A stretch of 10,316 bases of DNA from an uncultured archaeon (lineage in GTDB: Archaea > Aenigmatarchaeota > Aenigmatarchaeia > GW2011-AR5). The DNA lies in the NCBI GenBank assembly GCA_964373695.1, contig CAYJVT010000027.1, positions 1 to 10,316 on the forward strand, read 5' to 3'. The first letter of the stretch is position 1. Each line of letters starts with the position of its first letter. Under the pieces are notes generated by a model. The model searched no databases. It was not told the origin of the DNA and saw nothing but the letters and a program-made list of their open reading frames with translations. Of this stretch, positions 1-10,316 are shown one piece after another. Both the position numbers and the translations under genes were made by a program.

Positions 1-95
1 TACACGCGGCCTACAATGCGTAGGACAATGGGATGCAACACCGTAAGGTGAAGCCAATCTCCTAAACCTGCGCCCAGTTCGGATCGAGGGCTGCA

Positions 96-146
96 AGATT
101 GCTAACGAACAACTATGATTATAGCAAAGCGATAGTAATCCAGCAA
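96..146 (+). other. 51-nt BHB intron in 16S rRNA (after ~A1318, h42 loop)
   Basis: Central helix GCTG 90-93/CAGC 141-144; bulges CAA 94-96 and AAA 145-147; inner stem GATTGCTA/TAGTAATC. Cutting after the 2nd nt of each bulge restores GGGCTGCA|ACTCGCCC. Confidence 0.93.
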
Positions 147-191
147 ACTCGCCCTCGTGAAGCCGGAATCCCTAGTAAGCGAAGGTCATCA

Positions 192-438
192 ATGCTGCGA
201 ATTCTTAGATGACTATCTGCAGAAAACGAAGTTTTCTGAGATTCTCAAAAACCTTCGGTTTTTTGCAGAATTTGGCGTCATGAAAAACAGAAACAGATGA
301 TTGAAGAGTATGGGCGGCTAGCGAAATAAGCAAAAACGCTCTGCGTTTGGTTTGTTTCATATGCTAGCAACGGTTTGACTCTGATGTTTCGAAATTTCAT
401 GCAAGCAGCACGATGATTTGTTTTCGCAGCACGTGAAA
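192..438 (+). other. 247-nt ORF-less BHB-type intron in 16S rRNA (after ~1363, h43 loop)
   Basis: Inner stem TGCTGCGA 193-200/TCGCAGCA 424-431; central helix TCAT 186-189/GTGA 433-436 with one extra C432 (relaxed BHB); bulges CAA and AAT; h43 stem as outer helix. Splicing gives GCGAAGGTCATCA|TCTTTCGCTGAAT. Confidence 0.9.
216..269 (+). repeat. Hairpin family A, inverted doublet inside the 16S intron
   Basis: TCTGCAGAAAAC-GAA-GTTTTCTGAGA (216-241), then T, then the reverse complement of TCTGCAAAAAACC-GAA-GGTTTTTGAGA (243-269). Confidence 0.8.
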
Positions 439-446
439 TCTTTCGC

Positions 447-484
<38 letters not shown>

Positions 485-555
485 GCCATCCGAATGAGGT
501 TTTGGTGAGGTCTGTGATGAGCAGCTCGAACCAAATCTTTGTAAGGAGGGCTAAG

Positions 556-586
556 AGATTAACGGCTGCGGCCGTTTTTCGAGCAA
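556..586 (+). other. 31-nt BHB intron in the 16S decoding region (between ~G1494 and U1495)
   Basis: Interrupts CTAAG|TCGTAACAAGG. Central helix GCTA 550-553/GAGC 581-584 (one A.G mismatch); bulges AGA and AAT; inner hairpin GATTAACGGC-TGCG-GCCGTTTTTC. Confidence 0.9.
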
Positions 587-651
587 TCGTAACAAGGTAG
601 CCGTACGGGAACGTGCGGCTGGATCACCTCCTATATTTTTTCAACTCAAAG

Positions 652-679
652 GATTGGCGCATTTCATGCGCCGGTCTGC
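652..679 (+). repeat. Hairpin family B copy, just downstream of 16S
   Basis: GATT-GGCGCAT-TTC-ATGCGCC-GGTCTGC; aligns to 8523-8550 with compensatory stem changes. Confidence 0.7.
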
Positions 680-804
680 AAGGTTGGAAAAATCATCGAC
701 TTCGTGTGCCGTCAGTTACCTTACTGACGTCCTGATAGGTGCCAAATTGCGGAAGCCGAGGCTTCCGTCCGCTCAAGCGGCTCGCGCTTTCCATTCTGAT
801 ATTT

Positions 805-1980
805 ATGGATTTCAACAAGGCGTCTTTAGACGCCCACAGGGAAAAGAAGGGCAAGATAGAAATAGTGCCGAAGATGCGCGCCACCGACAGGGAATCTCTT
901 TCTATTGCCTACACTCCAGGAGTTGCCGCGGTCAGCAGGGCGATAGCGGCCGACAGGAAGGCTGTCTGGGACTATACGATAAAGCAGAACACGATAGCGG
1001 TCGTCACCGACGGCTCTGCAGTGCTCGGCTTAGGAAACGTAGGAGCAGAGGCCGCGCTGCCTGTGATGGAAGGAAAATGCATGATTTTCAAGGAAATGGC
1101 GGGCGTGGACGCGTTTCCAATATGCCTGGCGACGCAGGACGCCGGCGAGATAATATCCATCGTCAGGAACATGGCGCCGACATTCGGAGGCATAAACCTG
1201 GAGGACATAGCGGCGCCGAAGTGCTTCGAGATAGAGGCGGCCCTGCAGGACCTTGGCATACCAGTGATGCATGACGACCAGCACGCCACCTCAATAGTGA
1301 TACAGGCCGCGCTGCAGAACGCTGCCGGCATTGTCGGAAAGAGGATAGAGGAGCTGAAAGTCGTCATAAACGGCGCCGGAGCGGCCGGCATATCGACTGC
1401 ACGCATGCTCAAATGCATAAACATTGACAACAGCGTCTGCACATCGGTTGCGGACATAATAGTTTGCGACAGCAAAGGCACACTCCACAAAGGCAGGAAT
1501 GGCATGAACGTATACAAGCAGGATATCGCCAGGTATACGAACAGGAATATAGTGAAGGGCGGTCTAGCCGAAGCAGTGAAGGATGCAGACGTCTTCATAG
1601 GACTTTCGGCCGCCGGAGCGCTTACCAAGGAGATGGTGAAGAGTATGGCGGACGGGCCGATAATATTCGCGATGGCCAACCCCGTGCCGGAGATAATGCC
1701 ACAGGATGCGCTGGACGCCGGAGCTGCCATAGTCGGTACAGGCCGGAGCGACTTCCCGAACCAGATAAACAATGTGCTCGCTTTTCCCGGTATCTTCAGA
1801 GGGGCGCTCGACGCCAAGGCGACCAGGATAACGGAAGAAATGAAGATAGCGGCGGCTCACGCTCTTGCGAGAGCCGTGAAGCCTGCCAAAGACAAGATAC
1901 TGCCGCATGCGACCGACAAAGGGTATGTGAAGGATATAGCGGATGCGGTCATGAAGGCCGCGACAGATGTAAGAGATTAA
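805..1980 (+). CDS. mae: NAD(P)-dependent malic enzyme (short, unfused type), 391 aa
   Basis: Motifs AYTPGVA, VVTDGSAVLGLG, MEGK, INLEDI, HDDQH, INGAGAAG (Rossmann), FAMANP, TGRSDFPNQINN. Start placed at ATG 805 rather than GTG 739 because the 22-aa extension lies in hairpin-rich spacer. Confidence 0.96.
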   Translation: MDFNKASLDAHREKKGKIEIVPKMRATDRESLSIAYTPGVAAVSRAIAADRKAVWDYTIKQNTIAVVTDGSAVLGLGNVGAEAALPVMEGKCMIFKEMAGVDAFPICLATQDAGEIISIVRNMAPTFGGINLEDIAAPKCFEIEAALQDLGIPVMHDDQHATSIVIQAALQNAAGIVGKRIEELKVVINGAGAAGISTARMLKCINIDNSVCTSVADIIVCDSKGTLHKGRNGMNVYKQDIARYTNRNIVKGGLAEAVKDADVFIGLSAAGALTKEMVKSMADGPIIFAMANPVPEIMPQDALDAGAAIVGTGRSDFPNQINNVLAFPGIFRGALDAKATRITEEMKIAAAHALARAVKPAKDKILPHATDKGYVKDIADAVMKAATDVRD

Positions 1981-2051
1981 AATATTCAACCAAAATAATT
2001 ACAGTGATTTGAATGAATAGGGGTTCGAGAGATTTTTTTGAGGTGGTCAAA

Positions 2052-2438
2052 ATGAAAACATTGAGACAGACAGTGATTTTCAAGGCAAGTCCAAAGATCG
2101 TATACAATATGCTGATGGACTCCAAGAAGCACTCGGCATTCACCGGCGCGCCGGCGAAGATAAGCAAAAGAGTTGGCGGCAAAATCATCGCCTATGACGG
2201 CTACGTAGAAGGCAAGAATCTGGAGCTGAAAGATGGCAAGAAAATAGTCCAGAAATGGCGCGGCTCCGAATGGCCAAAGGGGCATTTCTCAACCGCGACC
2301 TTTGTTCTCGAGAAATCCGGCAGCGGAACAAAACTTATCTTTATCCAAGAAGGCGTTCCGGAAGACAGCTATGCCATGATAAGCAAAGGCTGGAAGGAAC
2401 ATTACTGGGACAAGATGAAGAAAATTCTTGAGAAATGA
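2052..2438 (+). CDS. SRPBCC/AHSA1 (activator of Hsp90 ATPase homolog 1-like) domain protein, 128 aa
   Basis: Pattern ASPKIVYNML.D...HSAFTG...VGG...YDG..G..LEL..GKKIVQKWR..EW...ST.TF.LE..G.GTKL...QEGVP......GW..HYW. SD GAGGTGG at 2040-2046 supports ATG 2052. Confidence 0.9.
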   Translation: MKTLRQTVIFKASPKIVYNMLMDSKKHSAFTGAPAKISKRVGGKIIAYDGYVEGKNLELKDGKKIVQKWRGSEWPKGHFSTATFVLEKSGSGTKLIFIQEGVPEDSYAMISKGWKEHYWDKMKKILEK

Positions 2439-2452
2439 CGATTTTTGACGAA

Positions 2453-2459
2453 TTTAAAT
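2453..2459 (+). promoter_or_regulatory. Putative TATA box for tRNA-Ala
   Basis: TTTAAAT 25-31 nt upstream of the tRNA 5' end, in AT-rich context. Confidence 0.5.
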
Positions 2460-2520
2460 CATTAAAAAATAATTTCTCACTACGGGCCGATAGATCAATT
2501 GGAAGATCGCTTGCTTTGCA

Positions 2521-2615
2521 CGAACTTTTTGGAAAAATCTGCAAAGAACGAAAGTTCTTTGAGATATTGAAGGAACTGGTTCCTTCAAAGAAGTTCGACC
2601 AAAAATTTCCGAACT
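2521..2615 (+). other. 95-nt BHB intron of tRNA-Ala, canonical position 37/38
   Basis: Central helix TTTG 2515-2518/CGAA 2610-2613; bulges CAC 2519-2521 and CTA 2614-2616; inner stem GAA.TTTTTGG/CCAAAAA.TTC. Confidence 0.95.
2538..2591 (+). repeat. Hairpin family A copy plus degenerate inverted partner in the tRNA intron
   Basis: TCTGCAAAGAAC-GAAA-GTTCTTTGAGA (2538-2564), then the hairpin TTGAAGGAAC-TG-GTTCCTTCAA (2567-2588) with a similar AAGGAAC/GTTCCTT stem. Confidence 0.7.
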
Positions 2616-2658
2616 AGCAAGAGGCTGGGGGTTCGAGTCCCCCTCGGTCCACCTAACC

Positions 2659-2666
2659 TTTATAAG
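2659..2666 (+). promoter_or_regulatory. Putative TATA box driving 23S pre-rRNA
   Basis: TTTATAAG immediately after the tRNA, followed by an AT-rich proximal element; implies a start near 2690. Confidence 0.6.
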
Positions 2667-2811
2667 CTTTTTTGTATCTATTCTATAATAGCTGTTCGTG
2701 GGGTCAGAAATCCCGCAGGTTCTTTACTCAGCATGAAAGTGCTGTTAGGCAGGAATTACAGGCTGTTCAGAGTCGGCAATGTATCGTGAGAGAATGCGTT
2801 GCTTGTGGCAA

Positions 2812-2838
2812 TCTGCAAAAAACGAAGCTTTTTGCAGA
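2812..2838 (+). repeat. Hairpin family A copy in the 23S leader
   Basis: TCTGCAAAAAAC-GAA-GCTTTTTGCAGA. Confidence 0.75.
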
Positions 2839-3000
2839 AATGTAGTTCGGTCATTATATGTTGCTGGTTCTGTTTAGCTTGGTGAAACAACCCATTCGTG
2901 CCGTCCTTGAGGAAGCACGGCTTCCTTGAGCAAGTCGCACCCAGGCAGCGAACGCTGTTCTGGCGAAGTGCTAAGAAAGGGCGCTTGCCTAATCACGCCC

Positions 3001-3018
3001 AGTATTCTGATGATGCAA
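3001..3018 (+). other. 5' arm of probable 23S processing stem (pairs with 9097-9115)
   Basis: AGTATTC/GAATACT and TGATGCAA/TTGCATTG long-range complementarity flanking the 23S. No clean BHB could be drawn. Confidence 0.5.
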
Positions 3019-3089
3019 TTACAGGTCCGGAACAAAGATAGTTAGCTCCCATGCTATCTGGCGGATGGCTTGGCTCGATTGGCGACGAA

Positions 3090-3152
3090 AAAGAATTAAC
3101 CCAAGACTGAAATTGTTGAATTTCTGAGGAATATGGGCTAATTCTTCGTCAT
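3090..3152 (+). other. 63-nt BHB intron in 23S (after ~A53)
   Basis: Central helix GACG 3084-3087/CGTC 3147-3150; bulges AAA and ATG; inner stem AAGAATTA/TAATTCTT. Splicing restores GGCGACGAA|GGTCGTGG. Confidence 0.94.
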
Positions 3153-3830
3153 GGTCGTGGCAAGCTGCGAAAAGCCCCGGGAAGACGCATGCAGTCTTCG
3201 AACCGGGGATTGCCGAATGGGACATCCCATTAATTCGCGACGCAAGTTGCGAAGGCGAACGCCCAGAATCAAAGCATTCTAGTAAGGGCAGGAAAAGAAA
3301 GCAAAAGCGATTCCCTTAGTAACGGCGAGTAAAAAGGGAACAGAACAAACCGAAGCTCCGCAGAAATGCGGCAGCAATGTGGTGTTTGGACCCGGGCTTG
3401 GCTTAACCCGCGCATCCGAAGTCTTCTGGAAAGAAGCGCATTACAGAGTGACAGCCTCGTAGGAGAAGGCGGGAAAGTTGATACCGGGTATCCAGAGTAT
3501 GGTTCCTTGGATTTGGAGCCAGAATACGGGTCGCATCTAGACCTAATTCTAAATACTGAATCGAGTCCGATAGCGTATTAGTAAGGCGACTGAACGTTGA
3601 AAAGTAGCCGTAAAAGGCGTTGAAAAGAGTCTGAACCCAGGTAGCTATAGTTAGTCGGGTAAGGCCGCCGCAAGGCGGAAGAATCCGACGTACGTTTTGA
3701 AAAACGTGGCAGGGAGTTTTTTCTCGTGGCAAGGCTAACCCTTCTGGGGGCAGCCGTAGCGAAAGCGATTGCGCGCAGGCAACAAGGCGCACCGTGCGAA
3801 AACGCGGAAGTCACGGGATAAAGACCCGAA

Positions 3831-4655
3831 AACTTGGGAGTGAGTAGAGGTTTGTTGAAAATAACCACTTTTCACGCGCTCTTGGCAAAGAGGTATTAAA
3901 GTGAAAAGCAAATGTTCCTATGCAAAACAGAGAAATTCTTTTGTCAAGATTGATAGGATTGCTCCTAACAGATGGCAGCCTGTATCAGAATAAAAAAATA
4001 AAAGGCTGGAGAATTTCCTTTATTTCCAGTTCAGAAGAACTTGTTTTCGAATTTGAAAGATTGGCTTTTGATTTGTTCAACATCAAATTCAAGAAAAGTT
4101 TTTATAAAGGTGCATTTGAAGTAAAGCATTCTATAAAAAAAGAATTTGTAGAAGAACTGGTAAGATATTCTCCAACATACAGAACACTTTCCAAAGAAGG
4201 CAAGGAAACAGAAGCACGAATACCAGAATTTATATGGCATCAACCGGTTCTTTCAAGAGAATTTCTCAAATATGCATTCACAGGAGATGGAACAATAATC
4301 CTCAATATAGGAAAAGCAAAATACGGCTTTAGGTTTGACAGGTGTGTAAAATTATATTGCAAACATACAAGTCTTCGAAAGCAATATTTTGAGCTTCTGA
4401 AAAAACTGAATTTTGAGCCTGTTATGCTAAAAGATTCAGTCTTATTGAGAAAACAAGAAAATATGACAAAATTTTCACAAGAAATAGGTTTTGTAGAAGG
4501 CGTTGAGATTTCAGGAAATGGCTTATGGAAAGGAATAATGAAATCAAATCTCCTGAAATTCACATCAAACTCGTATAGTCTGAAGCCTAAAATGCTAGGA
4601 AAAACAAAAGATGATATTCATACAAACCTTGTAAACCTCATTCCCAAGTCGGGCG
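3831..4655 (+). mobile_element. 825-nt BHB intron in 23S (after ~A676) encoding a homing endonuclease
   Basis: Central helix CCCG 3825-3828/CGGG 4650-4653; bulges AAA and CGA; 13-bp inner stem 3832-3844/4637-4649. Splicing restores GACCCGAA|ACCAGATGATCTAG. Confidence 0.95.
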
Positions 4656-4669
4656 ACCAGATGATCTAG
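3920..4669 (+). CDS. Double-motif LAGLIDADG homing endonuclease (intron-encoded)
   Basis: Motif 1 LIGLLLTDGSL; motif 2 FLKYAFTGDGTI, preceded by the typical IPEFI linker; AT-rich and Lys-rich. The ORF runs past the 3' splice site. Confidence 0.92.
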   Translation: MQNREILLSRLIGLLLTDGSLYQNKKIKGWRISFISSSEELVFEFERLAFDLFNIKFKKSFYKGAFEVKHSIKKEFVEELVRYSPTYRTLSKEGKETEARIPEFIWHQPVLSREFLKYAFTGDGTIILNIGKAKYGFRFDRCVKLYCKHTSLRKQYFELLKKLNFEPVMLKDSVLLRKQENMTKFSQEIGFVEGVEISGNGLWKGIMKSNLLKFTSNSYSLKPKMLGKTKDDIHTNLVNLIPKSGDQMI

Positions 4670-4730
4670 TCCTTGGCAGAGTGAAGCTTTGCGAAAGCAG
4701 AGTGGAGGCTCGATACCGGTTATGGTACAA

Positions 4731-4825
4731 TTTTAGTAAGAGCCATATTAGCGTCAACTAGTGAATCTCAAATAGCAATCTACATTTACTGGACGAGGTC
4801 ACAGATGTTTTTACTAGAAGTACAA
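4731..4825 (+). other. 95-nt BHB-type intron in the 23S H35 loop (~752-754)
   Basis: Central helix GTAC 4725-4728/GTAC 4820-4823; inner stem TTTTAGTAA/TTACTAGAA; 3' bulge AAA; the 5' bulge is relaxed. Removal restores GGTT-ATGGTACA-AACC. GTACAA flanks both ends, so the junction is sequence-ambiguous. Confidence 0.85.
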
Positions 4826-5687
4826 ACCTTTCGGGTGACCTAGGACTAGGGGTGAAAAGCCAATCGAATCTGGTAATAGCTGGTTCCTCTCGAGATGCAT
4901 CTAAGTGCAGCCTCGGCGAGTTCGGCTGGTGGGGTAGAGCACTGATTAAACAGCCAAGGGGAGAGATCCCCAACTGTTTTGTCAAACTCCGAATCCATTA
5001 GCATAATCGCCGGGAGTGAGGGTATCTGGAGTAATTTTGATATCCGAAAGGGAAAGAACCCAGACTGCAGTTAAGGTCCCTTAGTGCTGATTAAGTGTAT
5101 CGAAAGCGGTCTAAAACTTTAGACAGTGGGAAGGTTGGCTTAGAAGCAGCCATCCTTTAAACAACGCGTAATAGCGGACCCACCGAAGTTTTGGGCGCTA
5201 AAAATGGACGGGGCTAAATCAGCCACCGATACTGCGGACGTACTGCTTGCAGTGCGTGATAGAGAGGCGTCCTGCGTGGGCAGAAGCGTCCCCGTAAGGG
5301 GGCGTGGACCGCGCAGAAATGAAGATCCTGCCGGGAGTAGCATACGAGTCAGGCGAAAATCCTGACCGCCTGAGGGGCAAGGGTTCCCCAGTAAAGCTTA
5401 TCTGCTGGGGGTAAGTCGATCCTAACCGATGTCTTAGGAAGAGCATCGGGAATCAGGGAATGGAGTTAATATTCTCCAACCTGACAATGCGTTCTGTATC
5501 TTGGACGCTTCGGGATAACTCAAGCACGATTGTCTTCGTGTCTAAGTACTTAATCCGAGGGAGTGCTGTAATGGCGAGAACTTGGAGAATGTACGAATGG
5601 CCTGGTGTATGCCGGGTTTGGGCGATTCCTGGAGCCCGTGAAAACTTAATGCAGGCATAGCATTGTCTGATCGTACTCAGAACCGAC

Positions 5688-6095
5688 AAAGGCGAGGCTT
5701 CAACACAGAAATCTATGAATATCGAGGCGTACCTAGAGTCGACTACGAAACTGTCGATTTTTGAATATGCTGATGAGATAGACAAGGATTTTAGAGAACA
5801 AACAAGAGCAACAGGAATTTTGTTACCACAAAAATTCAATGAGAATTTGTTGAAAATAATAAAGATGAATGAGACAAATTTTCAAGAATTCTCGAAATCT
5901 TTTGGGTATACAGACAAACAATTTAGAATATGGAGAGAAGGCAAAGCTGCAATACCGCTTAAAGTATTGACAGAAATTTGGAAGAAAGCTGAAATAAATA
6001 TAGAAGACTTAGAAAAATATATTGAAAATTATTTTAGAGTTTTTGGCGTGGTCATTGACATAAAAAATATAGTTTGAAGTTCTCGTCTTCGGGAA
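5688..6095 (+). mobile_element. 408-nt BHB intron in 23S (after ~C1615) with an HTH-protein ORF
   Basis: Inner stem 5689-5703/6074-6089; central helix ACCG/CGGG (one A.G mismatch); bulges ACA and AAA. Splicing restores AACCGAC|ACAGGTGCCCC. Confidence 0.92.
5715..6077 (+). CDS. Intron-encoded 120-aa protein with an XRE/Cro-like helix-turn-helix; no LAGLIDADG motif
   Basis: NFQEFSKSFGYTDKQFRIWREGKAAIPLKVLTEIWKKAEINIEDL fits the HTH_XRE pattern. The uninterrupted ORF fills 363 of the 408 intron nt, with composition like the other intron ORFs. Confidence 0.75.
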   Translation: MNIEAYLESTTKLSIFEYADEIDKDFREQTRATGILLPQKFNENLLKIIKMNETNFQEFSKSFGYTDKQFRIWREGKAAIPLKVLTEIWKKAEINIEDLEKYIENYFRVFGVVIDIKNIV

Positions 6096-6114
6096 ACAGG
6101 TGCCCCTCGCTGAG

Positions 6115-6159
6115 ATTCGAAGAGCGGATGCTCTTGATTTTCCGTTCTTCGAACAGAAA
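6115..6159 (+). other. 45-nt BHB intron in 23S (after ~G1633)
   Basis: 13-bp inner stem 6116-6128/6141-6153; central helix GCTG/CAGA (one G.A mismatch); bulges AGA and AAA. Splicing restores CGCTGAG|AAGGCG. Confidence 0.92.
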
Positions 6160-6287
6160 AAGGCGAAGGTGTTCTGGAGAATCCACTTTAGGGAACTCGG
6201 CAAAATAGCCCGGTATCTTCGGTAGAACGGGTGCCTGCTTAGTGATAAGCAGGTCGCAGTGACAAGTTCCATCGGACTGTTTAACAA

Positions 6288-6375
6288 ACAGGAAGAGGTG
6301 TTGAAGAAAAACTGCTATAGCTACCGCTCGAAAGAGCCAGTCCGTAGCAGCATGTATCATCTCTCTCTGGTTGAT
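6288..6375 (+). other. 88-nt BHB intron in 23S (after ~A1784)
   Basis: Central helix TAAC 6282-6285/GTTG 6370-6373; bulges AAA and ATA; inner stem 6289-6300/6358-6369. Splicing restores CTGTTTAACAA|AAACGTAG. Confidence 0.93.
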
Positions 6376-6629
6376 AAACGTAGCCGGCTGCTAAATCGAA
6401 AGGTCTTGTATAGCCGGTGAGTCGTGGCCACTAGCGGTGTGTTAAAACTGGTTTCAACCGGTCTAAGCCCCGCTGTAGGCCGGCCCTAACTCTGAGGGTC
6501 TTAAGGTGAAATTTGTTGCCTTAGTAAAATTTGGCTGTATGCTGGAACGTCCAAAATTTTCAGGTCCTGAGAAAGGAACAACCCTGAAAGGATGTGGACA
6601 ATCAGCAGGAAACCGTGAGGTGAGAAACC

Positions 6630-7124
6630 ATGAAAATGCCGAAAATAAAATATAGAAATTATTACCTTCTTGGATTCACAGATGCAGAAGGCTGTTTCAG
6701 TATTTCTCTGAAAAGGGAAGATACAGCAAGATTTGGATGGGCTTTGGATCCCCTATTTCAAATAACACAGCATAAAACAAATAGAGAAATTCTAGAGATC
6801 TTTCAAAACGAACTAAATTGCGGCAGAATAATAGAAAAATCTGGACAACCAGATTTGTTATTATATCTTGTCGACAATCGAAGACAACTTGTTGAAAAAA
6901 TAATACCTTTTTTTGAGAGGAACAGACTGATGGCAAAATATAACGACTTTGATAAATTCAAGGGAGTTGTAGAAGGCCTTGAAAACAAACTGCATCACAA
7001 AAAAGACACTTTTATCAACTTAATCAGAAAGTGTTATGAAATGAATCTTGAAGGCAAACAAAGAAGATACAAGCTAGAAGAAGTCATTGAGGATATCAAA
7101 AAACGGAATCCCCAGAGACTATAA
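6630..7124 (+). CDS. Single-motif LAGLIDADG homing endonuclease (I-CreI/I-CpaI-like), 164 aa
   Basis: YLLGFTDAEGCFSISL, F.ITQH...EIL..F...LNCGRI, IIPFF; SD GAGGTGA at 6617-6623. The C-terminus overlaps the ribozyme R element. Confidence 0.96.
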   Translation: MKMPKIKYRNYYLLGFTDAEGCFSISLKREDTARFGWALDPLFQITQHKTNREILEIFQNELNCGRIIEKSGQPDLLLYLVDNRRQLVEKIIPFFERNRLMAKYNDFDKFKGVVEGLENKLHHKKDTFINLIRKCYEMNLEGKQRRYKLEEVIEDIKKRNPQRL

Positions 7125-7234
7125 GCCAAACACGAAGCAGAGCGATAGCATCACTGCTTTTGTGAAGATATAGTCCGAACCTTGCAGTAATGCAAGGAGA
7201 TTTACAGAAATGTAAATCCGCTTCAAAATAGTTC

Positions 7235-7258
7235 AACGCACTTATGTGCGTTGGTCTG
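7235..7258 (+). repeat. Hairpin family B copy in the P9 extension of the group I intron
   Basis: AACGCAC-TTAT-GTGCGTT-GGTCTG. Confidence 0.8.
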
Positions 7259-7792
7259 TTAAGGAGTCCTAAAGTAACAGCTTGAGCGTAATCCCTTGCC
7301 ATTTAAATGATGGCCTGCATGATGGATTAACCAGATGGAAACTGTCCCGAAGTGGACCCAGGCGAAACCATTGTTCTGGTGATTAGGCCAGAGACCTCCA
7401 GTGGGAAGAGTAGACCCCGTGGAGCTTTACTGCAGTTTGTTGTTGTAGTATGGAAGGGACTGTAGAGCGTAGGTAGGAGGTGTCGAAGCTTTCTCGCAAG
7501 AGAGAGTGGAGCCAACAATGTAACACTACCCTTTTTCATCTATACTGCTTATACCGAAAGGTAGACATCAACAGATAGGCAGTTTGACTGGGGCGGTACG
7601 CCTTTGAAAAGATATCAAAGGCCCTCTAAGCTCGACTCATTCCGGTCAGAAATCGGAAGGAAGAGTGCAAACGCAAAAGTCGGGTTGATTGGACTCTTAA
7701 CATAATAGTGTCCAACCGCGAAAGCGTGAGTTAGCGAGACGCAGTTCGGCCTAGATGGCTGTCTGTGGTATGAGAAAAGCTACCCCGGGGAT

Positions 7793-8390
7793 AGATCTAT
7801 AAGCGTCTGTTAATAAATCAAGTTGATGCTGGAGAAAGGATTTGTCTTTGGAGCAAGCTATGACGGAATTGTCTATCACCGTGAAGAGAAAAATGAATAT
7901 GGCTTAGAAATAGACCAGAAATCTCTTTTATGGTTGAAGATAGTTCAAAAATACTTGCAGAAAGCTTATCGTAAAAACTCTAAGATTAGAAAAACAAAAA
8001 GAGGTTACTTTAGATTGAATGTATATTCTAAAGATCTTTATAACGAACTAAAAAAACTTCACGAAAATCCGCATTTAATCTTAGAGCAAAACGAAAAATT
8101 TCAGATAGGTTTTCTTCAAGGGATCTTTGATGCTCAAGGTAGTATTCGTTTCGAAAGAAGGCATATTACCGTGAGTTCAAATGAACCGAAAACAGCAGAG
8201 ATTGTCATTAGATTGCTTGAAAAGAATTGTATAAAAACTGGAAAACCATTCAAAGACAAAAATAACGTTATAAGTATCCCTTTCTACGGAAAAAACAATA
8301 TGTTAAAATTTAGTCGAATTATAAATTTTCGTCATCCAGAAAAGAAAGAGAGACTTGATTTGTTATTAAAATCGCTTGTAAATCCCCTAT
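7793..8390 (+). mobile_element. 598-nt BHB intron in 23S (after ~U2449) encoding a homing endonuclease
   Basis: Central helix GGGG 7787-7790/CCCT 8385-8388; bulges ATA and ATA; inner stem 7794-7805/8373-8384. Splicing gives CCGGGGAT|AATGGTGTCGT. No group I core elements are present. Confidence 0.94.
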
Positions 8391-8392
8391 AA
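7826..8392 (+). CDS. Double-motif LAGLIDADG homing endonuclease; second motif has Q in place of the acidic residue
   Basis: Motif 1 FVFGASYDGIV; motif 2 FLQGIFDAQGSI; C-terminal I.FRHPEK..RL typical of the family. Start is ATG 7826 or TTG 7823. Confidence 0.9.
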   Translation: MLEKGFVFGASYDGIVYHREEKNEYGLEIDQKSLLWLKIVQKYLQKAYRKNSKIRKTKRGYFRLNVYSKDLYNELKKLHENPHLILEQNEKFQIGFLQGIFDAQGSIRFERRHITVSSNEPKTAEIVIRLLEKNCIKTGKPFKDKNNVISIPFYGKNNMLKFSRIINFRHPEKKERLDLLLKSLVNPL

Positions 8393-8418
8393 TGGTGTCG
8401 TAGCGGGCGAGAGTTCTT

Positions 8419-8626
8419 GTCCGTATTCTTCGACATTACGGGGTTTGTAAAATATTAACCTCGGTGTCTACAAAGTACCACCAACATCGTATTACCCTCA
8501 ACTGTTAGAGTGAGCAACGAATGATTAACGCACTTCGTGCGTTGGTCTGCTTTTCCGTGAAAAACAGCGTTAGTAATACGATAAAGGTCTTTGCAGACAT
8601 AGACAAACGAAGAATCCGGAGGACAA
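8419..8626 (+). other. 208-nt ORF-less BHB intron in 23S H89 (after ~U2477)
   Basis: Central helix GTTC 8413-8416/GGAC 8621-8624; bulges TTG and AAA; inner stem 8420-8432/8608-8620; outer GA/TC. Splicing restores GAGAGTTCTT|ATCGACCCC. Confidence 0.93.
8523..8550 (+). repeat. Hairpin family B copy inside a BHB intron
   Basis: GATT-AACGCAC-TTC-GTGCGTT-GGTCTGC. Confidence 0.8.
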
Positions 8627-9066
8627 ATCGACCCCGCGTGTTGCGGCGTCGCTGTCGGCTGGCCCTCTCCTGGCTGTGCAGCAGCAGCCAAGGGTGCTGG
8701 AGTTCACAGATTAAAAGGGCACCTTAGCTGGGTTCAGAACGGTGTGAGCCAGTTTGGTCTATATCTGCTGGAGGTGTCATTGCCTGAGGGAAAAGAAGGA
8801 TAAGTACGAAAGGAACATCCTTCTGCGGCCTCTTGTGTACCAGTTGTCCGACAGGGCAGCGCTGGGTAGCTACGCCGTACGCCGATTAGAGCTGAAGGCA
8901 TCTAAGCTCGAAGCGGCTCTCGAAAATAGGCAATCGGTGCTGGCAAGACGACCAGTCATGGAACAGGGGTGTAATTACCAAGCTTCGGCGAGGTATTCAG
9001 CCCATTGTCTCCTAAACCAATGCTAACCTTTAACGTTGGGAAGCAAAGAGGATTGATGCAAAAGCT

Positions 9067-9093
9067 GATAGACGCACAAAGTGCGTCAGTTTG
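9067..9093 (+). repeat. Degenerate hairpin family B copy downstream of 23S
   Basis: GATA-GACGCAC-AAA-GTGCGTC-AGTTTG. Confidence 0.55.
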
Positions 9094-9220
9094 TTTTTGC
9101 ATTGTTCTGAATACTTCCCTCGAGAAATCGACCGGACCTGAAAATTGCATTTTCATAAGTAAAATGGCTATAGTGCTCCAAGAAAACAATCATAATTATT
9201 AGTTTTCTTTGGCACTATAT

Positions 9221-9262
9221 GTGAACCAAATAAGTTATATCCTGTTTATTTATTTGGTTCAC
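9221..9262. repeat. Perfect 13-bp inverted repeat with a 16-nt spacer
   Basis: GTGAACCAAATAA (9221-9233) / TTATTTGGTTCAC (9250-9262). Confidence 0.85.
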
Positions 9263-9553: not shown

Positions 9554-9853
9554 ATGACGGATACAGCCGGCAGAGAAGGCTATGACGCCGGGTATCTTGA
9601 GCAAGATTTATTAGCTTGTTCTCCAATACTTTCTTGTGACCTGCCACTTGACCGCCCCTGGCGGACTCTGCAGGAAGGCCGGATGCCCTCTAGCAGGGAC
9701 ATCCTGACGAACTTCGGAACTACCGGGGAGGAAGCTCTGCCCACCCTTCCGCAAGGAGATGTGCGCGCACGGGCGCCTGGCAGGAATGCCAGACATCGGA
9801 AACAGAAACGACACCGGCTGCATACCGAGAACGGCTCATGCCGTTATAGATGA
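9554..9853 (+). CDS. Hypothetical protein (doubtful)
   Basis: ATG 2 nt after the previous stop, as expected in an operon. No recognisable domain, and the C-terminal half looks like off-frame sequence. Confidence 0.25.
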   Translation: MTDTAGREGYDAGYLEQDLLACSPILSCDLPLDRPWRTLQEGRMPSSRDILTNFGTTGEEALPTLPQGDVRARAPGRNARHRKQKRHRLHTENGSCRYR

Positions 9854-10023
9854 GGAATGCCTATCAGGCGAAAGCCTGAGGCCGGATTAAACGGTCCATG
9901 TGCACAGGGTGCAAGGCTACAAGCCGCATAGACGAATGTCAAGAAGCCTGTTCGTGACGTGCTGACATGAGAAGTATAGCTTCCTATGCTTACAGCACCG
10001 AGTGAAGGCTAACAGAAGGCAGG

Positions 10024-10316
10024 CTATGGCAGGTCACCATCATGTTCAAGGAAGGTGATTCCACCTTCTTTTATTATTTCTCCCAGCTCGTGCTCCAAAA
10101 AGTCACGGACGCTAGGCCTTTCCATGAGCTTGTCCATCACGCTGTCTGTCAGCCTTCTTTTCTCCTCGATTTCCATGACTGTTTTCAGATCAAGAGGCAT
10201 CCAGCATTTCTGGCAGACCTTGAAAGTAGCCGGGTTCACTTTTCCGCAGCGCGGGCAGTCTTTTGGCCTGAGCGTGCCGTTGTCTTTAGGCTCGGCGCAT
10301 TCATGCAACAGCCTCT
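10024..10316 (-). CDS. C-terminal Zn-ribbon region of a probable archaeal tyrosine recombinase/integrase (5' part outside window)
   Basis: PKDCPRCGKVNPATFKVCQKCWMPLD followed by a helical tail MEIEEKRR..D..MDKLME.P.VR..L, the tail I recall from archaeal XerC/D-like integrases. The frame is open to the window edge (..RLLHEC). The catalytic domain is not visible. Confidence 0.65.
   Translation of the reverse strand, partial: RLLHECAEPKDNGTLRPKDCPRCGKVNPATFKVCQKCWMPLDLKTVMEIEEKRRLTDSVMDKLMERPSVRDFLEHELGEIIKEGGITFLEHDGDLP

Follow-up and report, generated by a model that had tools for sequence, protein, structure and literature searches.

A ~36-nt palindromic module, probably mobile, dispersed in Aenigmatarchaeota and placed at hairpin tips in the trailers and introns of an rRNA locus

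The window analyzed here is the entire contig C27 (10.3 kb) of an uncultured archaeon of the Candidatus Aenigmatarchaeota, whose genome (G000) comprises 1.02 Mb in 60 contigs, and the element in question, family B, is a small hairpin with a conserved tail (GGTCTG in most copies of this genome) that recurs in several non-mature parts of the pre-rRNA encoded there. We interpret family B, with a probability of about 0.7, as a tiny (~36 nt) non-coding, selfish palindromic mobile DNA module, its copies in the rRNA locus being passengers and not processing signals. The first-pass annotation of this DNA had proposed two explanations, a mobile hairpin and an RNA-level tag on discarded pre-rRNA segments, and had preferred the tag; comparison with related genomes supported the former and went against the latter.

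The four hairpins of that annotation were all found on the + strand and in the hosts it had named, namely the 16S trailer, a group I intron, a short 23S intron and the 23S trailer. A covariance model built from five G000 copies gave the scores listed below, together with the copy outside the window and a tentative sixth one.

652-679, + strand: c1, GATT-GGCGCAT-TTC-ATGCGCC-GGTCTGC, in the 16S trailer; part 635..693, conserved core 651-681, 40.3 bits
8523-8550, + strand: c2, GATT-AACGCAC-TTC-GTGCGTT-GGTCTGC, in a short 23S intron; part 8516..8557, core 8522-8552, 42.8 bits
7235-7258, + strand: c3, AACGCAC-TTAT-GTGCGTT-GGTCTG, in a group I intron; part 7230..7261, 38.4 bits
9067-9093, + strand: c4, GATA-GACGCAC-AAA-GTGCGTC-AGTTTG, in the 23S trailer; part 9045..9113, core 9066-9096, 39.5 bits
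G000:C5:40729-40759, sense strand, outside the window: c5, ~270 nt upstream of rpl3
328..357, + strand: possible degenerate sixth copy, AAGC-AAAA-ACGC-TCT-GCGT-TT-GGTTTG-TTT, in a 16S intron (tentative)

The copies c1 and c2 differed in three stem pairs, all of them compensatory, and had the same loop and both flanks, as had been read originally; c3, located 1.3 kb from c2, shared its stem and tail and presented a 4-nt loop (TTAT) and the 5' flank GTTC, not GATT. Copies were placed at the ends of larger hairpins. In the 16S trailer, c1 caps a longer hairpin (fold -29.2 kcal/mol, z -7.2) with T-rich and A-rich arms that begin immediately behind the 16S 3' end. In the group I intron, c3 forms the tip of a peripheral hairpin and is separated by 26 nt from the 3' end of this intron. 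The copy c4, which lies 36 nt past the 23S 3' end at 9031, corresponds to an insert of 69 nt that folds on itself (-34.1 kcal/mol, z -6.5) and occupies the loop of the hairpin GGGAAG/CTTCCC (9038-9119) in the 23S trailer. This last copy had been described as degenerate; it turned out to be the one closest to the family consensus of the relatives.

Family B did not arise by chance. The pattern CGCAY-N3-4-RTGCG-NN-GGTCTG matched four times in 1.02 Mb, three of them in the window and the fourth on contig C5, against an analytic expectation of ~0.004 matches per genome. With the covariance model the five G000 copies scored 38-43 bits and the next best site of the genome 15.6 bits. A relaxed scan (A/T-rich flank, any 5-bp stem and RGTYTG tail) gave eight matches in G000 vs. 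0-2 in shuffled genomes. The genome-wide scan suggested in the first-pass annotation therefore revealed a motif enriched over chance in G000, and extended the family with c5 and perhaps with 328-357; the latter was found by the relaxed scan alone, was not detected by the covariance model and folded weakly (-8.5 kcal/mol, z -1.8). No Rfam match, at E values up to 1, overlapped any window copy or c5.

Statistics on the anatomy of the module cover 53 distinct copies. It is ~36 nt long and consists of a 5' flank rich in A (approximately AAAGC-NGAWW), a G+C-rich stem of 7 bp with the consensus GACGCAC/GTGCGTC, a loop of 3-4 nt, the 3' tail RGTYTG and some T-rich bases. The stem was paired in 99.2% of cells and displayed double (compensatory) changes in five of its seven pairs, values that no shuffle reached and that lean towards structure, since the stem alignment was fitted to the covariance model. 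As the stem is GACG...CGTC, it ended in CGTC in 48 of the 53 copies. Column counts showed an unconstrained loop and a near-invariant tail, its positions G, T, Y, T, and G being kept in 50-53 of the copies. The four bases flanking the stem on each side paired in just 34-75% of copies, with no covariation; pairing therefore does not account for the conservation of the tail, and an interaction of the tail with the 5' flank, being only partial, was discarded as an explanation. An outer stem, differing in sequence from copy to copy, extended nearly every copy. The sense strand folded somewhat better than its complement because of G-U pairs (mean -15.8 vs. -13.5 kcal/mol; sense better in 62 of 80 copies).

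The predicted folds of all copies formed a near-continuous helix with small symmetric internal loops. On inspection of these folds, no bulge-helix-bulge (3-nt bulges 4 bp apart) could be drawn in any copy, and inspection of the sequences gave no kink-turn/L7Ae site or C/D box, the 3' strand RGTYTG having no GA. Readings of the internal loop as a bulge-helix-bulge substrate, a kink-turn or a loop-E-like motif were dropped because the defining bases were missing from folds and column counts.

The first-pass annotation had also related family B to another hairpin repeat, family A, through a loop reading GAA on the reverse strand and a tail containing TCTGC. This kinship was not supported: the loop is free, so that the GAA carries no weight, and the base following the tail was T in 36 of the 53 copies, so that TCTGC does not characterize the family. 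The modules of family A, which have two hairpins (...TCTGC-hairpin-GAGAT-hairpin-GCAGA...), are themselves present or absent between G000 and two genomes of its genus, G001 and G002, as noted at L004:4800-4990 (G000:C5) and around 19790-19850 of G001:C9. Two modules occur in the spacer upstream of rpl3 in G000 only, and one occurs in the short 23S intron in G001 and G002 only. This indel polymorphism indicates that families A and B are part of the same general phenomenon.

Copy number of family B varied widely among relatives. The covariance model matched in 34 of 61 related genomes and gave no match in 27, distinct copies per genome ranging from 0 to ~40. Raw matches, which include reverse-strand echoes, amounted to 59 in G014, 29 in G003, 27 in G016, 20 in G034, and 16 in G036, and were absent from many genomes; within a single genus (g10) the genomes had 0, 0, 0, 20, and 16 matches. 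The ~40 distinct copies of G014 were distributed over many of its contigs and on either strand. The exact pattern was found in 37 stretches among 185,579 species genomes (one genome per species), 33 of them from Aenigmatarchaeota or unclassified archaeal metagenome-assembled genomes and four bacterial, and it had no match in IMG/VR viral contigs. This indicated that family B is a dispersed repeat specific to one lineage and almost restricted to Candidatus Aenigmatarchaeota. Our literature search found no published description of such repeats in this group.

Copies in the relatives were mostly intergenic, and all four arrangements relative to the flanking open reading frames (ORFs) were common. 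The few copies falling within ORFs corresponded to upstream extensions of stop-to-stop frames, except for one weak match inside a TatD-like gene. Neighboring genes were unrelated housekeeping ones (L10e, Cbf5, FBPase, TYW2, L3, an epimerase, a secretion ATPase, ScpA, and PFOR-beta), and no transposase was seen among the neighbors of module copies. Two copies lie in long introns of tRNA genes:

G009 L021:1408-1568: tRNA gene with the module in its long intron, sense
G012 L017:1456-1607: tRNA gene with the module in its long intron, antisense

The second one rules out the idea that copies within stable-RNA transcripts are always sense. The first-pass annotation had stated that copies common genome-wide and in random orientation would refute an RNA tag, and this is what the relatives presented, with copies in both orientations throughout their genomes and an antisense one in a tRNA intron.

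The history of individual copies was traced by comparison with G001, the closest to G000 by identity of aligned rRNA blocks, and G002, the outgroup within the genus; the rRNA locus of these same-genus genomes is otherwise 84-100% identical to that of G000 in such blocks. At the c4 site, G001 has the plain hairpin GGGAAGC-TGCGC-GCTTCCC without insert, G000 carries 69 nt (9045-9113) in that loop, and the flanks are otherwise near-identical. The c2 site consists of 42 nt with the module in G000 vs. 12 nt in the orthologous intron of G001 and G002, where the empty site reads TATTGCTGGAAA or a near variant and is part of a tiny AGC-TATT-GCT hairpin (boundaries of this insert were realigned by eye from the intron alignment). 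At the c5 site, the hairpin AAAGAC-ATA-GTCTTT of G002, present as a near variant in G001, holds 38 extra nt at its tip in G000. The empty sites of c4 and c5 are small plain hairpins, and that of c2 appears to be one as well. None of the three sites showed a target-site duplication, and the inserts had replaced 6-12 nt there. Since G002 is the outgroup, the three copies are gains in G000, and recent ones. In addition, G001 presented a variant of its own, ATT-GACGCC-TCC-GGCGCC-GGTCTG, located 35 nt further along the c5 spacer and lacking in G000 and G002.

The other two copies are older. The place of c3 in the orthologous group I intron of G002 was occupied by AATT-GATGC-TAAA-GCATC-GGTTTG, with a shorter stem and the same flanks, and c3 is thus at least as old as the genus. 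The old copy c1 was also found in the 16S trailers of G001 and of G014, which belongs to another genus. These were the only carriers together with G000 (three of ~20 genomes examined), and ~17 of the ~20 distinct trailers had a plain hairpin instead. In most relatives the T-rich/A-rich hairpin begins within a few bases of the 16S 3' end (window 621-700, L073-L092); this hairpin, and not the family B cap, is the conserved feature of the 16S trailer. As for the 23S trailer, no copy was found in G001 or in the 23S 3' loci searched in ~18 other relatives. When the 23S 3' loci of the relatives were searched along with the full rRNA loci of G001, G002, and G005, the sole full-strength match was the 16S-trailer copy of G001; another match (22 bits, L112 of G016) is not in a trailer, being 1.3 kb upstream of the 23S 3' region that was aligned. 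The module is therefore not tied to a conserved position of the pre-rRNA, c2 and c4 being absent in congeners and the 23S-trailer copy missing from all relatives searched, and its presence behind both rRNA 3' ends is not a feature that the locus conserves.

In G014, the module core was found in the second hairpin of two larger repeat families. One of these carriers (L173-L179) has 17-bp terminal inverted repeats (GGCACTGTCAACTTAAG) along with target duplications of 9 bp, and is a conventional MITE (miniature inverted-repeat transposable element). The distance between its ends is 89 bp in at least five places and 120 bp in others. The 89-bp copies contain a plain second hairpin with a 4-nt loop, e.g., GGCTGTTGCC-GATA-GGCAACAGCC, and in the 120-bp copies ~37 nt (AAAGC-AGATA-stem-loop-stem-AGTTTG-TTT) take the place of the loop together with the 3' arm's first two bases. 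Longer versions of this MITE also occur, the versions differing by whole hairpin modules. The other carrier family has an empty version next to one locus (right flank of L064). The module was found in both orientations within otherwise identical outer hairpins, which indicated that the mobile or invertible unit is the ~36-nt module itself.

In the reading of family B as a mobile module, new copies arise at the tips of pre-existing hairpins, giving longer hairpins capped by the module; insertion at the tip of an RNA helix merely lengthens the helix, and trailers and intron peripheries consequently tolerate it. The rRNA locus of G000 is rich in such dispensable, highly structured segments, and the module has built up in them. 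The near-invariant tail is a putative recognition site of a trans-acting factor. Insertion could take place into hairpins that are extruded as single strands, such as on a sense strand displaced where the DNA is heavily transcribed, or else copies could pass from hairpin to hairpin by template switching or short-patch conversion. Either route would account for four features, namely the lack of a duplication, the replacement of loop bases, the local clustering, and the single orientation of copies in the rRNA locus, and the first two of these features suggest a single-strand mechanism or template switching between hairpins. Local copying (c2 and c3 have the same stem and tail), the abundance of hairpin-tip targets in the rRNA locus and insertion on the displaced sense strand could each contribute to the clustering and the sense bias in G000.

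Several observations weigh against this interpretation. We identified no enzyme or donor mechanism, the mechanism being one that we infer, and saw neither a target-site duplication nor clean boundaries; inserts of 31-69 nt replaced 6-12 nt, so that these sites do not demonstrate ordinary transposition. Within G000, the sense orientation common to all copies, noted in the first-pass annotation, and their clustering, 4-5 of the 5-6 copies lying in one 10-kb locus, are real; this exceeds what random landing would give and is only partly explained. Much of the copy number of G014 is hitch-hiking inside conventional MITEs, and independent insertions of the module are consequently far fewer than its copies. 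Finally, several families of the order share the conserved tail, which could also reflect a host function, and c1 was kept at the same 16S-trailer position across two genera.

These last points lead to the alternative that the module spread and was then kept because it is useful to the host, e.g., as a block to 3'-5' exonucleases, a transcript stabilizer or the binding site of a lineage-specific protein, with the rRNA copies exapted; bacterial repetitive extragenic palindromic (REP) sequences, which act in RNA or DNA where they land, provide a model. Conservation of both tail and stem sequence across families goes beyond the needs of pairing, the module is carried in at least two unrelated MITE families, c1 was retained across genera and the G-U pairs are strand-specific, all of which agree with such a role. 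A copy number that goes from 0 to ~40 among close relatives is unlike a housekeeping signal, though, the orientation relative to genes is mixed and orthologous sites work without the module, and we regard this alternative as improbable.

The RNA-level tag, in which some factor would bind or cut the hairpin with its GGTCTG tail and so mark or process discarded pre-rRNA, is very unlikely. It would fit the restriction of all G000 copies to the sense strand of ribosomal transcripts, two of them soon after the 16S and 23S 3' ends, the slightly better folding of the sense strand and the conservation of c1 in G001 and G014. The distribution of the module largely refutes it: c2, c4, and c5 are absent at the orthologous sites of same-genus genomes, relatives lack the 23S-trailer copy in the loci searched and mostly have a plain hairpin in the 16S trailer, their copies stand mainly in intergenic regions beside unrelated genes in either orientation, one is antisense in a tRNA intron, and 27 of the 61 genomes do without any match.

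Very unlikely, too, is an element of the REP type mobilized by a Y1 (HUH) transposase, RAYT or IS200-like, that acts on single-stranded hairpins, for which the REP-like form (a short G+C-rich palindrome with a conserved single-stranded flank), a Y1 transposase in G000 (C52:1390-1746, 98.9 bits) and the lack of terminal inverted repeats or target duplications, as in the IS200/IS605 family, could be invoked, but which has no Y1_Tnp match in five of the seven module-richest genomes (G014, at 97% completeness, G003, G016, G034, and G036), just a 16.7-bit fragment broken by a stop codon in G005 and one match in G031, Y1 genes without module in G010, G025, G030, G038, and G040, Y1 genes of G000, G026, and G031 on contigs without a listed module match, and no GTAG tag. 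A link with Y1 transposases was rejected accordingly, as these genes do not track the module across genomes, and the search for TnpB-type domains gave no link to the module either. The Y1 (IS200-type) ORF at C52:1390-1746 is intact (138 aa) and a fragment occurs on C17; neither contig has a family B copy.

The closest described elements are the bacterial REP sequences, especially the transposase-less CGTC-tagged class (PMC3733652), and yeast mitochondrial GC clusters such as GC42 (PMC4478555). Like REP/REPIN sequences, the module is a 20-40-nt G+C-rich palindrome with a short conserved flank, dispersed in non-coding DNA (PMC3733652; PMC3116915), very variable in copy number between relatives and often transcribed as an RNA hairpin; G000 has 5-6 copies of it and relatives as many as ~40, mostly in intergenic positions. 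'CGTC-tagged' REPs have no dedicated transposase (PMC3733652; PMC3116915), and no transposase accompanies the module either. The CGTC with which most copies of its stem end comes from the stem sequence GACG...CGTC, and the other features of CGTC REPs differ (PMC3733652). Unlike REPs, it belongs to archaeal (DPANN) hosts, has a stem of 7 bp vs. 8-9 bp with A-T at the base, ends in RGTYTG and not in CCA, lacks GTAG and a flanking, co-occurring RAYT (Y1) gene, and inserts into the tips of other hairpins, where it may be nested in MITEs. The resemblance to GC clusters lies in a ~40-nt palindrome spreading in a compact genome with no known enzyme, in quick turnover between close relatives, in merging or nesting with other clusters and in location in spacers and introns (PMC4478555). 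GC clusters are organellar and unrelated in sequence to the archaeal module, and a putative target-site duplication has been reported for them (PMC4478555), whereas none was seen for the module.

Prokaryotic MITEs (Correia/NEMIS, RUP, and Sulfolobus SM elements) are small non-coding hairpin repeats tolerated in transcribed, structured RNA regions, and Rickettsia palindromic elements are small hairpin-forming repeats of the same kind (PMC3733652). The G014 carriers have the terminal inverted repeats and the duplications (9 bp) of classical MITEs; the module differs from MITEs in being far smaller, in having no terminal repeats beyond its own stem and in showing no duplication at the three filled/empty sites. 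One may ask whether family B belongs to a new class of ultra-small (~36 nt) mobile elements that home specifically to the apical loops of DNA hairpins, are recognized through the GTYTG tail by a putative Aenigmatarchaeota protein or copied transposase-free by template switching between extruded hairpins, build hairpin-within-hairpin structures and prefer heavily transcribed structured-RNA genes; we advance this only tentatively.

The locus that houses these copies was annotated as follows.

1..634, + strand: 3' part of the 16S rRNA gene; the 16S end near 631-634 fixes the position of c1 in the trailer
2484-2651: intron-bearing tRNA (Rfam tRNA model)
3037..9031, + strand: archaeal 23S rRNA gene, heavily interrupted by introns
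~8419-8626: short 23S intron, host of c2

The 5' part of the 16S gene was found on contig C12. Two ORFs that encode proteins occur at 830-2440, between the genes for 16S and 23S rRNA, which consequently do not form one simple 16S-spacer-23S unit. ARAGORN reported no tRNA in the window or in the relatives' loci, missing intron-bearing archaeal tRNAs, and the Rfam tRNA model was used instead. The group I intron of the 23S gene, with limits at ~6508-7284 taken from exon sequence, gave an Rfam Intron_gpI match at 6903-7197 (43 bits, E 2e-8, under the gathering score). A helix between leader and trailer of the 23S rRNA was found by direct motif search, RNAduplex on long leader and trailer segments having given nothing informative; 3013-3030 pairs with 9132-9152, with an extension read by eye (ATGCAATT/AATTGCAT), and c4 therefore lies between the mature 23S 3' end and the trailer strand of the helix. 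Directly past the 23S trailer, at 9167-9260, there is a double-hairpin repeat with a TATAG...CTATA signature, whose first 28-34 nt recur with 93-100% identity in ~12 other places on 11 other contigs of G000. An archaeal RNase P RNA match (9696-10038; 71.5 bits, E 1e-18, under the gathering score of 84) sits 0.7 kb downstream of the 23S gene. Outside the window, G000:C42:1275-1711 contains a second 23S 3' region that is just 84% identical to the window copy and corresponds to a divergent second rRNA operon or to a contaminating contig in the bin.

For the biology of this organism, the results remove a tempting reading, the hairpins shared by trailers and introns of its unusually intron-rich rRNA locus not being a processing code. 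The consistent placement at hairpin tips offers a handle on the spread of the very abundant tiny palindromic repeats of Aenigmatarchaeota, for which we know of no enzyme yet. If family B is mobile, as we favor, selfish mini-hairpins land, in a 1-Mb DPANN genome, in non-mature parts of the pre-rRNA, among them the periphery of a group I intron, and such insertions can inflate spacers and introns and mislead searches for structured RNA motifs.

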